A stretch of DNA of 64,000 bases from Candidatus Heimdallarchaeota archaeon (GCA_016839945.1 JAEOTE010000025.1:12517-76516), one strand, 5' to 3'. Shown: positions 32,718 through 36,543, numbered from the stretch's first letter. Made by a program: numbers and translations. Notes: a model not told the origin generated them from the letters alone.

Positions 32718-33866
32718 TTATAAACAAACGATTTCTTTTGGAGTATTTGACAATCTTATCGAACCTTCTTTAGTAACTATACAATCATCTTCTAATCTAA
32801 CTCCAAATTTGCTCTCAAAGTATAATCCTGGTTCTACAGTTATTATGGAATTTTCGAGTAAAGGTTTTGAAGGCCTTGTTGGAGTTCCTCTGTAAATCCC
32901 ATATCCAATATCATGGGTTTCAATTCCTAAAGCATGTCCTGTTGAATGTAAATAATATATCTCTGGATCATATCCATATTCTTCGAATTTCTTTCTAACA
33001 GCAATTTCCACTTCTTCTCCTAATACTCCAGCTTTAATTTTTGAATAAGCTGCTTCTTTTGCTTGGTCTACAGCTTCATATGCTCTCAACACTTCTTCGG
33101 AGGGATTTTTACCTATCCAATATGTATGTGTAATATCTGATTGGGATAAATTATATGAAACACCATAATCAATCAATAGTACTTGATTGTTTTCAATTTT
33201 CTTTTCACTTGCTTTATGATGAGGAATTGCTGCATTGGCACCAGAAGCTACAATTGCTTCAAAAGCAACACCTCCCCTTTTATTACACTCAAATTCTACT
33301 AAAGCAGCTAGCTCTTTTTCTGTCATACCAGGTTTGATGATGGGTTCAATAATTTCTTCCATCAGCTCTTCAGCTAGTCTAGCAGCTATCTTATGATTTT
33401 CTATTTCTTTCTTAGTTTTATTTGCCCTTATTTCAAAAATGATGTCTTTTGCTGGAATATATTGTATCTCTTTATTGAGATTAGTTAATGCTTTGAATGT
33501 ACCAGCTGATATGATGTCGAAGTTAAGATGTTTAAATGATTCTTCCACGAAGTTTAAAGCTATTTTAGATCCTTTTGGAACGGCCATCATCTCATCTTCC
33601 ATTAGTTTCACTAATTCTTCACTTTTTTTGTACTTCTTTACTTCAAATGTTTCATTGTCAACCATCATAGCTTCCATTTGTGAAGTAATCACAATTGGTT
33701 TGCCTTCTTTATGAATCAGAATGAAGGTGGAACTTGCAAACCACTTTTCTAATAGATATTTTAGGTGGATATCATAAGAGTGATGACAAAAAACTATCCA
33801 CCCATCTACATTATGTTTTTTTAATATGTTTTGAATTCTTTTGATTTTTTCACTCATATAAACCAC
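32718..33866 (-). CDS. Xaa-Pro aminopeptidase/prolidase (M24B)
   Basis: IPHH, LIDYG..SDIT, HSTGHALGIETHD, TVEPGLY, GVRLEDD. Confidence 0.92.
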   Translation of the reverse strand: MVYMSEKIKRIQNILKKHNVDGWIVFCHHSYDIHLKYLLEKWFASSTFILIHKEGKPIVITSQMEAMMVDNETFEVKKYKKSEELVKLMEDEMMAVPKGSKIALNFVEESFKHLNFDIISAGTFKALTNLNKEIQYIPAKDIIFEIRANKTKKEIENHKIAARLAEELMEEIIEPIIKPGMTEKELAALVEFECNKRGGVAFEAIVASGANAAIPHHKASEKKIENNQVLLIDYGVSYNLSQSDITHTYWIGKNPSEEVLRAYEAVDQAKEAAYSKIKAGVLGEEVEIAVRKKFEEYGYDPEIYYLHSTGHALGIETHDIGYGIYRGTPTRPSKPLLENSIITVEPGLYFESKFGVRLEDDCIVTKEGSIRLSNTPKEIVCL

Positions 33867-34479
33867 AAGTTCTTAATATCTTTTTTAACCAATCAGGTAT
33901 AAAGTTTAATTCCGATAATTCTATTAAATCTTTAAATGTGTCTATATCATTATAGACGTTTTCATGCATTAGAAGTTTAAAATCTCTTCCCTCTTTTTTG
34001 AAAACATCTTTGAATTTTAGTGATGAATTTATTCCAAACAAAAATGGAAATTTGTCATTTCTATTAAAACACAAAATACTTGTTCCATTATCCAGTGTTG
34101 GTGCTAAAATAATCTTCCTTTCCAATTCATGTAGTTTAATTATTTTTGCTAAAGTTTCAGTATTTATTAAAGGAAGATCTGCCATTATTATTACGACTAT
34201 TTCCTCATCTATTTCATGCAAAGCTTCTTCTATAGCTATATTCAGATCATTGCTCTGATCTTGTATAATTATGGACTTTTCTGCAAAATCAATATCTCCT
34301 TTAGTTAAGAGATAAATGCTCTTTTCTATCTCTAAATCTGATACTTCTTTTAGAACATGTTTTATTGATTCATTAAGTAAGGAGTCCACCAATTTATCAT
34401 CTAAATCGAGTCGAAGTCTACTCTTGTCGTTTTTAGTTCCTCTAAATGGAATTAGGATTCCTATTTTCATGTGCATCAA
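33850..34479 (-). CDS. cofC: 2-phospho-L-lactate/PEP guanylyltransferase (F420 biosynthesis)
   Basis: IPFR...KSRL, MADLPL, LAP..DNGT, FG..S, DIDT..DL; next to cofD. Confidence 0.85.
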   Translation of the reverse strand: MMHMKIGILIPFRGTKNDKSRLRLDLDDKLVDSLLNESIKHVLKEVSDLEIEKSIYLLTKGDIDFAEKSIIIQDQSNDLNIAIEEALHEIDEEIVVIIMADLPLINTETLAKIIKLHELERKIILAPTLDNGTSILCFNRNDKFPFLFGINSSLKFKDVFKKEGRDFKLLMHENVYNDIDTFKDLIELSELNFIPDWLKKILRTCGLYE

Positions 34480-34501
34480 TTCTTTTATTTTAGATATAAA
34501 C

Positions 34502-35455
34502 TTAGGATTTAGAGTTCATTGCATCATTTAATCCCTTATCTAGAACTGTTCTGGCTAAATTTTCTGCAATTTTAACATCTTTAAAAAGAATGTCCTCTAC
34601 TATAACGTTCATATTGGTTTCTTCTTTTATTGTTTCTTGTAAGTTCTTATCTGATACATCAATAACAATGGTTTTGCATAATTTTTCGTAAATTCTAGCT
34701 ATCTCTATTGAGGAAGTTTCTAAATTTTCTATTGTCATAAGTTTACTTGTAGGACCGCTAATGGGTTTGCTTCCTATAATAGGACTAATAACCCAACACT
34801 TTTCTCTGTTCTTCTCCATCCATCTCCTTATTTCCCTTAGTTCAAGTATTGGCTTTATACTAGTTATAGGATTGCTAGGTCCTACAATAACTAATTTAGA
34901 TTTTTCCAGAGTTTGAATTATCTCTGCTGGAATTTTAGCTGATTCAATCCCTTTAAAATACACTTTTTTGATTGCTATCTCTCCCCTATGTTTTACCCAA
35001 AATTCTTGGAAATGAATATCCTCATCATTAGTGGTTATTATCCTTGTTTCAATATGACTATTAGTACTTGGTAAAATAGTGGCTCTGATTCCTAGCTTCT
35101 TTGAAATCTCTCGAATTATCTCACATTGATTATATCCTTCCCCCATTTTTTTTGTTCTAAAAAGATGTAATCCTAAATCCTTATCACCTAAATTAAACCA
35201 AGTATTTTTCTCAAATTTTCTTAAGAACTCTATTGTATGAAAACTATCTTCTTTAATTCCCCAATGTTTATCCTCATCCAAGAATCCACTAAAAAGGTAA
35301 ATTAAAGTATCAATATCTGGAGAAATATAAAGACCATACATCCAAATATCATCTGCAGAATTTGCAATTACAGCAATATCACTATCATCTATTATCTTTC
35401 GAAAACCTTGAATTAGTTTTGGGGTTCCAGTTCCTCCTGAAAGGAAAGTAATCAT
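34502..35455 (-). CDS. cofD: 2-phospho-L-lactate transferase (F420 biosynthesis)
   Basis: LSGGTGTPKL, GLYISPDIDT, WFNLGDKD, HFQEFWV, GPSNPITSI.PIL, SGP. Confidence 0.95.
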   Translation of the reverse strand: MITFLSGGTGTPKLIQGFRKIIDDSDIAVIANSADDIWMYGLYISPDIDTLIYLFSGFLDEDKHWGIKEDSFHTIEFLRKFEKNTWFNLGDKDLGLHLFRTKKMGEGYNQCEIIREISKKLGIRATILPSTNSHIETRIITTNDEDIHFQEFWVKHRGEIAIKKVYFKGIESAKIPAEIIQTLEKSKLVIVGPSNPITSIKPILELREIRRWMEKNREKCWVISPIIGSKPISGPTSKLMTIENLETSSIEIARIYEKLCKTIVIDVSDKNLQETIKEETNMNVIVEDILFKDVKIAENLARTVLDKGLNDAMNSKS

Positions 35456-35496: not shown

Positions 35497-36543
35497 TTAC
35501 TTCTTTGAAGAGGATTTCTTTGTTTTAGTAGATGATTTAGTCTTAGTTGTCGTTTTTGATTTTGGTTTTGTTTCAGTTTTCTTCTTTGCAGTTGTCTTAG
35601 GTTTGGTTGTAGTCTTGGGTTTTGGTTTGGTTGTAGTCTTAGGTTTTGGTTTTGCTACAGCTTTAGGTTTAGGTTTGGTTGTAGTCTTGGGTTTAGGTTT
35701 GGTTGTAGTCTTGGGTTTTGGTTTAGTTGTAGTCTTGGGTTTTGGTTTAGTTGTAGTCTTGGGTTTTGGTTTAGTTGTAGTCTTAGGTTTTGGTTTTGCT
35801 TCAGCTTTAGGTTTAGGTTTAGCTTCTACCTTGGTTTTTGGCTTAGCTTCTACTTTGGTTTTTGGCTTAACTTCTACCTTAGGTTTAGGTTTAGCTTCTA
35901 CTTTGGTTTTTGGCTTTTTCACAACCTTCTTTTCTCTTTTAGGAACAATATCTGAAAGTCTAAGTCTGGAAGTTGATTTTATTACTACACGATAATAAGA
36001 TCCTGATTCTCCCATAAGTGGATTTCTTATAATTTTTATAACATCTCCAGGTTTTGCTTGTATCGCTTTAACAGCAGGATCTGTTTCCAATACTTTTGGA
36101 ATTTGATGTTTTTCAATCTGATATTGTTTTAAGAAAGTATTAATCTCTCTGGAATTTAATCTCAAGTGCTGCGGTACATGTTCATGATCAAAAATATTAA
36201 ACAGAGGATTTGTACTGCTAATAATTTCAATTCCTAGCTTAACTGATTCTTTCTTTGCATAATGAGTCAAGGGAGCTTCTGCAATTAATAATGCATTATC
36301 AATTTCATCTTCTTCTTGAAGTTTTCCTAAAATTCTGATTGTTTTTACTCCAATTTGGGGATTTTTAGGAAATCTTGCAATAACATTTGCTTTTCCACCA
36401 TCTTCAACAGTCATTAGACCGTAGACATCAAGATAATCATCATCTTCTTTAGTCTTATCAATTTTAAAGCCTCGAAACTCAAGAATTTCTTTGACTCCCT
36501 TAACAATTCTTTTTTCTTTAGCTTGTTGTTCTTTGGATACCAA
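35497..36543 (-). CDS. rpoH: RNA polymerase subunit Rpo5/Rpb5 with eukaryote-like N-terminal jaw domain and Lys/Pro/Thr repeat tail
   Basis: Core [13 protein letters not shown]...[26 protein letters not shown]...YYRVV; about 110-aa N-terminal domain with RGF and [13 protein letters not shown]; TTG start with GAGGT SD. Confidence 0.92.
35605..35916 (-). repeat. 13 tandem 24-bp coding repeats (KPKPKTTT / KPKTKVEA octapeptides)
   Basis: Counted in the translation: 5 KPK(T/P)K(V/A)E(A/V), 5 KPKPKTTT, 1 KPKPKAVA, 2 KPKPKTTT. Confidence 0.95.

Follow-up and report, generated by a model that had tools for sequence, protein, structure and literature searches.

A gene on the minus strand of a 64,000-nucleotide stretch of DNA from Candidatus Heimdallarchaeota archaeon (GCA_016839945.1 JAEOTE010000025.1:12517-76516; hereafter the window) was found to encode a member of the Rpo5/Rpb5 family of RNA polymerase subunits, in an archaeal jawed form that here carries a polycationic tail. 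It is very probably the single Rpo5 of a Heimdallarchaeaceae RNA polymerase and has two domains arranged as in eukaryotic RPB5. Translation revealed an uninterrupted open reading frame (ORF) with three parts, namely an N-terminal domain (N-domain, aa 1-112), an Rpb5_C core (aa 115-187) and a C-terminal tail (aa 196-348). The start position, MVSKEQ, was common to the homologues and the N-terminus was conserved from residue 1; the close homologues were named Heimdallarchaeota or Heimdallarchaeaceae at NCBI. A first-pass annotation, made from the sequence of the window, had placed an archaeal Rpo5 with the eukaryotic jaw domain at 35917-36543. The gene does lie there, but the end coordinate cut it short, since the ORF reaches 35497 and the 153-residue tail had been missed. 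The strings quoted in that annotation were present in the translation (EILEFRGF at aa 19-26, the others at aa 57-70 and aa 76-98), and its estimate of about 110 residues ahead of the RpoH core agreed with the Pfam placement of Rpb5_C.

The jaw has been described as a eukaryotic feature. The N-terminal jaw of Rpb5 is given as eukaryote-specific, and archaeal RpoH as lacking it, in one review (PMC6690254); another describes the jaw as eukaryotic and archaeal RpoH as the C-domain only (PMC3906176). An earlier chimera of a yeast Rpb5 N-domain with a Pyrococcus C-domain failed in yeast without selection (PMC3906176). The two reviews agree with the first-pass statement that canonical archaeal RpoH corresponds only to the C-terminal part of Rpb5. 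The Pfam family of the jaw, PF03871, has been listed as Eukaryota only (PMC3424549). A 2026 survey of archaeal small-subunit evolution modelled Asgard Rpo5, and its matched passages mention no N-domain of Rpo5 (PMC13257274). Among the terms searched in Eme et al. 2023, including the supplements, there was no mention of such a domain, and no report of an archaeal Rpb5-type N-domain was found in the openly searchable full-text literature. Public databases carry the architecture unremarked, as precomputed Pfam PF01191 + PF04471 assignments and as one JGI record named RPABC1.

Relationship of the N-domain to the jaw of eukaryotic Rpb5

When the 198-residue core was used as a single query against PDB chain sequences, human RPB5 came first (E 1.1e-18, query 22-175 aligned to 39-197). 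The alignment of the core with eukaryotic Rpb5 ran through both domains and was continuous across the junction, and a Heimdall profile aligned 1-188 with 1-205 of A. thaliana NRPB5A. With the N-domain alone, the sole matches at E<=10 among 177,635 PDB sequences were eukaryotic Rpb5 (best 4.3e-5), and no nuclease appeared among them. A profile built from 26 N-domains of 19 Asgard families (A3) had no matches below E 0.01 other than Rpb5 (human 1.7e-9, A. thaliana 1.7e-8). In this alignment, which spanned positions 11-99 of the profile, the eukaryotic sequence carried one insertion of 18 residues, and AF1548 and other restriction endonucleases (REases) were not found by sequence in the PDB at E<=10. 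Profile-to-profile comparison with hhalign used nine Pfam-verified eukaryotic Rpb5 and twelve canonical Mrr_cat domains from Asgard genomes. The Asgard N-domains aligned to eukaryotic Rpb5 with a probability of 98.6% (E 1.2e-15, score 92.8) and to the canonical Mrr_cat domains with 97.5% (E 7.7e-12, score 65.9), whereas eukaryotic Rpb5 against the same Mrr_cat set reached 36% (E 3.7e-4, score 29.7). With purpose-built whole-domain hidden Markov models (HMMs), the N-domain of the window scored 38.6 bits against eukaryotic Rpb5-N and 18.8 against Mrr, and the eukaryotic N-domain HMM scored highest on the window's family among the 19 families sampled (30-51 bits in Heimdallarchaeaceae). As judged from these profiles, Rpb5-N is a nearer relative of the archaeal N-domain than Mrr is, and the archaeal domain bridges both families because eukaryotic Rpb5 itself barely detects Mrr. 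The first-pass claim of a full-length eukaryote-like Rpb5 in a prokaryote was borne out by the exclusive Rpb5 matches of the N-domain and by the hhalign scores; the contrary outcome that it had named, an N-domain no closer to Rpb5-N than to Mrr-like domains, did not emerge from either whole-domain comparison.

Structure prediction with AlphaFold2 (AF2) gave an N-domain model with a predicted local distance difference test score (pLDDT) of 90.9 and a predicted template modelling score (pTM) of 0.81. The model formed the minimal REase core, alpha-beta-beta-beta-alpha-beta-alpha-beta, with the elements H4-23, E27-33, E37-45, E51-59, H66-78, E83-88, H94-103 and E105-109. In the AF2 models, this PD-(D/E)XK-fold domain stood directly before Rpb5_C with a short hinge between them, and a Foldseek search with the two-domain model returned full-length Rpb5 chains as all of its top 35 matches (E about 1e-12). 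The same minimal REase fold is found in Mrr_cat (PF04471), NA-iREase1 (PF22722) and AF1548 (1y88). Canonical Asgard Mrr domains keep the GDxGID and QxK motifs, with D32, G34, D36 and K54 invariant (n=12), whereas the window protein lacks this signature and its domain is fused to a polymerase subunit instead of belonging to a restriction or defence protein. By hhalign, V54 and A56 occupy the columns of the Mrr catalytic Q and K in the window protein, and A3 had no conserved Lys there. On this alignment the N-domain is a dead nuclease in which the catalytic (E/Q)xK pair is gone, and Rpb5-N has likewise been described as an inactive nuclease fold (PMC3424549). An active-nuclease or defence role for the domain was rejected because the catalytic residues are missing. 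A stand-alone Mrr_cat-like ORF of 129 aa occurred elsewhere in the same genome (C149:47455-47751, minus strand, 27.6 bits). It was considered as a close paralogue of the Rpo5 N-domain and rejected on its weak match (hhalign 71%, 55 columns). Similar stand-alone Mrr_cat-like forms of 134-157 aa were seen in the genomes of family f5.

Eukaryotic Rpb5 (RPABC1/POLR2E; PF03871 + PF01191; PDB 1dzf, 5flm_E, 7eu0_E) shares with the window protein the PD-(D/E)XK N-domain, the hinge and the Rpb5_C layout, and the RGY, FP..P.(I/V)G(V/I)K and T-x-x-AK blocks are common to both. Within A3, the best-conserved residues were R24, G65 and T93; R24 was the sole invariant residue across the 26 domains, and G65 and T93 were each conserved in at least 90%. 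The human RPB5 strings cited in the first-pass annotation were seen in the HMMER alignments, namely RGY and the two longer strings ffpeep...ktik and qeeni...gmtpsakq. Yeast Rpb5 P86 has been proposed as a DNA contact, and the downstream DNA is touched by TPSA of human RPB5 and by T117-P118-S119 of the yeast protein (PMC6690254). By alignment, P62 of the window protein would be the counterpart of yeast P86; at the T93-A96 position, Thorarchaeota carried TPAA. The N-domain of the window protein was about 25-30 residues shorter than that of eukaryotic Rpb5 (about 110 vs about 135-142 aa), and in contrast to the eukaryotic proteins it keeps a clear Mrr_cat similarity and comes from an archaeon, which has only one polymerase.

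Across all polymerases of archaea and eukaryotes, it is the C-terminal Rpb5_C module that attaches this subunit to the largest one. In the window protein, the C-terminal 73 residues of the core are the same domain as canonical archaeal RpoH/Rpo5 (about 75-95 aa; 8cro_H, 4qiw_H, 2waq_H), with 39-47% identity in Foldseek alignments and 44-47% to the archaeal Rpo5 chains 8cro_H and 4qiw_H. The canonical proteins have no N-domain, unlike the Rpo5 of the window, and the role shared with them is presumably the binding of the largest subunit near the downstream DNA. The Pfam match to Rpb5_C (gathering cut-off 23.5 bits) was the single one above the cut-off in a profile search of the 3.0-Mb, 186-contig, 88%-complete genome, and the closed genomes G015 and G016, which belong to that family, had one match each. 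The gene did not adjoin rpoB, which was located on another contig that starts within rpoB. In the mechanism that these features suggest, the Rpb5_C module would dock the subunit on the largest subunit, and the N-domain, an Mrr-type PD-(D/E)XK fold without the (E/Q)xK pair, is predicted to sit at the lower-jaw position facing the downstream DNA. By its similarity to Rpb5-N, the domain would be placed like the Rpb5 jaw and may contact that DNA.

Distribution and variant forms

The mapping across archaea that the first-pass annotation had called for was run in 400 Asgard species genomes, with a threshold of E<=1e-4 for the N-domain profile. The 195-residue core matched 370 of the 400 genomes, and the N-domain profile matched 214. 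In families f1-f8, f12-f17, f22, f24-f26 and f28-f33, every sampled genome or most of them had the N-domain. In this set, the profile gave no match in f9-f11, f18, f21, f23 and f27, and matched 1 of 14 genomes in f19 and 1 of 135 in f20; a short ORF with only the C-domain (81-94 aa) was found in one genome each of f9, f19, f20 and f27. The two-domain Rpo5 is the majority form in Asgard and occurs in most families, including Thorarchaeota. It probably extends beyond Asgard, because a 182-aa member of a cluster labelled Bathyarchaeia at NCBI had Mrr_cat followed by Rpb5_C. The earlier suggestion that the form might already occur in some Asgard/TACK genomes was right and understated its spread.

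Most members of this Bathyarchaeia-labelled 90%-identity cluster (P0336, P0337, P0338; the cluster of P0087/P0327) were 182 aa long, and several NCBI records gave 72-81 aa. In these short records the start codon was probably picked downstream of the N-domain, or the records are partial; either would hide the domain from surveys. Records with an 81-aa product are what would be expected if the two-domain gene were an annotation or assembly artefact, that is, a run-on from a small nuclease-like gene into rpoH or a chimeric contig. The likelihood of an artefact is virtually negligible, as the architecture recurred in hundreds of independently assembled genomes, some of them on a single contig, and the unbroken frame, the conserved N-terminus and the continuous alignment with eukaryotic Rpb5 across the junction also argue against it.

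The number and arrangement of the domains varied. In f31, which corresponds to Thorarchaeota by NCBI names, two tandem two-domain genes were often present, and the pair L045/L046 consisted of two adjacent intact two-domain Rpo5 genes per genome. The duplication predates the split of the two genomes, because each paralogue lineage was conserved between both in the tree. A sister family of the same order, f4, had a 475-aa Rpo5 (L034, G052:C64) with three tandem N-domain copies before Rpb5_C (HMM matches at aa 48-121, 179-259 and 271-459), and database clusters of 327-481 aa showed the same tripled form.

Evidence against a shared origin and alternative explanations

Several results weigh against the assignment of the gene, the homology of its N-domain to the jaw or the vertical descent of the jaw. 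The scan with the Pfam RNA_pol_Rpb5_N model (PF03871) that the first-pass annotation had proposed came out against it: the N-domain scored 14.4 bits, below the gathering score of 27 bits, over aa 51-71 only, and lower than its scores for Mrr_cat (21.3 bits) and NA-iREase1 (24.4 bits). On the whole protein, the first 110 residues gave weak Mrr_cat and NA-iREase1 matches only; the Mrr_cat score dropped there to 17.9 bits, the gathering score being 21, and relatives reached 34 bits. Only 1 of the 26 Asgard N-domains matched Rpb5_N at E<0.01. Superposition of the lone N-domain ended in a tie between AF1548 (Z 11.0; rmsd, the root-mean-square deviation, 2.8 over 97 residues), A. thaliana NRPB5 (Z 10.2) and NucS (Z 9.7), and Foldseek with the lone domain intermixed EndoMS and Rpb5 among the top matches. 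The window protein carries THYA, not the TPSA of the human protein, and the archaeal N-domain lacks the eukaryotic 18-aa insertion, which lies after helix 1, between RGY and strand 1. Since this metagenome-assembled genome is incomplete and its rpoB contig begins inside rpoB, it might conceivably have another, short rpoH. A maximum-likelihood (ML) tree was built over 189 columns from two-domain proteins, 28 of them from Asgard archaea and 9 from eukaryotes. In it, the eukaryotes formed one clade (100/99) outside all sampled Asgard sequences, and the tree gave no positive support for eukaryotic descent from Heimdallarchaeia.

Two of these tests were not used to decide homology. The Pfam Rpb5_N model was set aside as a decisive test because it is a poor yardstick: with 89 positions it ends at the FFP..KVGVK block, spans about half of the fold and includes the eukaryotic insertion. 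Eukaryotic Rpb5 proteins, too, gave borderline Mrr_cat and NA-iREase1 matches over the second half of the domain. The fold searches with the lone N-domain (Foldseek and the wide structural search) were dropped as homology evidence because they did not discriminate Rpb5-N from AF1548 and NucS. The undecided fold search would be in keeping with a convergent fusion, in which archaea and eukaryotes each added a Mrr-like dead nuclease before RpoH, so that the N-domain is an analogue of the jaw and not a homologue by descent. The separate eukaryotic clade on a long branch, the plastic domain number seen in the three-copy form, and the match of all 26 Asgard N-domains to Pfam Mrr_cat (best E 2e-12), as against the one that matched Rpb5_N, point the same way. 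Convergence is nevertheless unlikely, since whole-domain profiles put the archaeal domains nearer to Rpb5-N than to Mrr and both the order of the three shared blocks and the short hinge ahead of Rpb5_C agree between the two groups; furthermore, the weak Mrr_cat and NA-iREase1 matches of eukaryotic Rpb5, which fall over the same stretch, fit one lineage diverging from Mrr.

The high HMM scores of the Heimdallarchaeaceae N-domains, the most eukaryote-like of the families sampled, could also be explained if Asgard/TACK archaea had taken up a two-domain gene from eukaryotes that displaced the short RpoH. Such a transfer is very improbable. The archaeal proteins lack the insertion and have a much stronger similarity to Mrr_cat, which looks like the ancestral state; most Asgard families have the form, as does one protein labelled Bathyarchaeia; and no archaeal sequence was nested inside the eukaryotes in the tree. 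Approximately unbiased (AU) tests rejected neither a grouping of the eukaryotes with the window's class (p 0.19) nor one with its family (p 0.17). The naming of a donor lineage from the ML tree and the AU tests was dropped, because the gene is too short and neither grouping was rejected, with the eukaryotes standing outside Asgard.

With slightly better than even confidence, we consider that the RPB5 jaw was not a eukaryotic invention. On this view, an archaeal ancestor living before or around the Asgard/TACK radiation would have joined a dead Mrr-type domain to its RpoH. The eukaryotic stem would have inherited the fusion, and Lokiarchaeia-like lineages would have lost it; the version closest to that of eukaryotes would survive in Heimdallarchaeaceae, and this genus would have added to it a histone-H1-like polycationic tail by which the polymerase is tethered to DNA. 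Should most Asgard archaea normally have a two-domain Rpo5, another supposedly eukaryotic feature of Pol I/II/III would have an archaeal origin. The source of the jaw would then be identifiable as a dead Mrr-type nuclease, and it would be the archaeal proteins, as sequence intermediates, that allow Rpb5-N to be connected with Mrr. In eukaryotes the jaw touches downstream DNA, and TFIIB is among the factors with which it interacts; its function would become testable in a simpler, single-polymerase system.

The lysine-rich tail

The tail consisted of 153 residues rich in Lys, Pro and Thr (58 Lys, 34 Thr and 26 Pro; net charge +51), built from the units KPKPKTTT and KPKTKVEA, and its coding DNA overlapped a tandem repeat array (Table 1). 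From aa 194 onwards the AF2 model had a pLDDT under 50, and the tail is predicted to be disordered. A basic tail was present in 24 of 24 species of the genus, with differing repeat units and lengths. Sister genera had short basic or mixed tails, or acidic ones, and within the family the long basic tail was found only in this genus; it was absent from the aligned eukaryotic Rpb5 proteins. The most economical reading would be a non-specific DNA tether, in which the disordered lysine-rich chain holds a polyanion such as DNA. Rpo13 of Sulfolobales adjoins Rpo5 and binds duplex DNA, according to the matched passages of the survey cited above (PMC13257274), and would be the nearest functional analogy both for the basic tail and for the added jaw element. 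The analogy is functional only, as Rpo13 is a separate small subunit, whereas the tail of the window protein is covalently part of Rpo5 and repeat-encoded. Should the two-domain form be normal for most Asgard archaea, the tail would also be a natural experiment on tethering the polymerase to DNA or chromatin. On the opposite strand, a 130-aa G/L/V-rich ORF mirrored the lysine-repeat region and is almost certainly no gene.

Features of the locus and neighbouring genes

Table 1. Positions of the rpo5 gene, its parts and motifs, and neighbouring ORFs in the window
Feature	Position	Strand	Details and evidence
Whole rpo5/RpoH gene, two-domain with C-terminal tail	35497..36543	-	348 aa, TTG start; ORF list, translation
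Stop codon of the Rpo5 ORF	35497-35499	-	Translation
N-terminal jaw-like domain, inactivated Mrr-type PD-(D/E)XK fold (predicted)	36208..36543	-	AF2, HMMER, hhalign, Pfam
R24-G25-F26, at the RGY motif of eukaryotic Rpb5, end of helix 1	36466..36474	-	A3, human alignment; codons CGA GGC TTT
F58-P-K-N-P62-Q-I-G65-V-K-T-I-R70, at the human FFPEEPKVGIKTIK block	36334..36372	-	HMMER alignments
T93-H94-Y95-A96, at the human RPB5 TPSA position	36256..36267	-	plthyakke aligned to gmtpsakqs
Rpb5_C / RpoH assembly domain	35983..36201	-	PF01191 79 bits, E 2.3e-22, profile positions 1-73 of 73
C-terminal low-complexity tail	35500..35958	-	Translation, composition
24-nt tandem repeat array, about 12-12.5 copies, also 48- and 72-nt periods	35597..35913	.	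Tandem Repeats Finder
G/L/V-rich ORF, 130 aa	35603..35995	+	
CxxC...CxxC protein, 121 aa	36606..36971	-	Pfam OapC (origin-associated), E 5e-11
Downstream genes on the strand of rpo5 (CofD, CofC-like, M24 peptidase)	32718..35455	-	
CofD	34502..35455	-	
CofC-like	33850..34479	-	
ORF, 754 aa	37951..40215	-	

The neighbours of rpo5 were genes for an OapC-like zinc-ribbon protein, a BpsA_C-like protein, CofD and CofC, of which the OapC-like gene lay directly upstream. No Pfam match was obtained for the 754-aa ORF at E<=0.001. CofD and CofC are families of F420-type cofactor biosynthesis. Both were encoded directly downstream of rpo5 together with an M24 peptidase, and the ORFs of the CofC-like protein and the peptidase overlapped by 17 nt.
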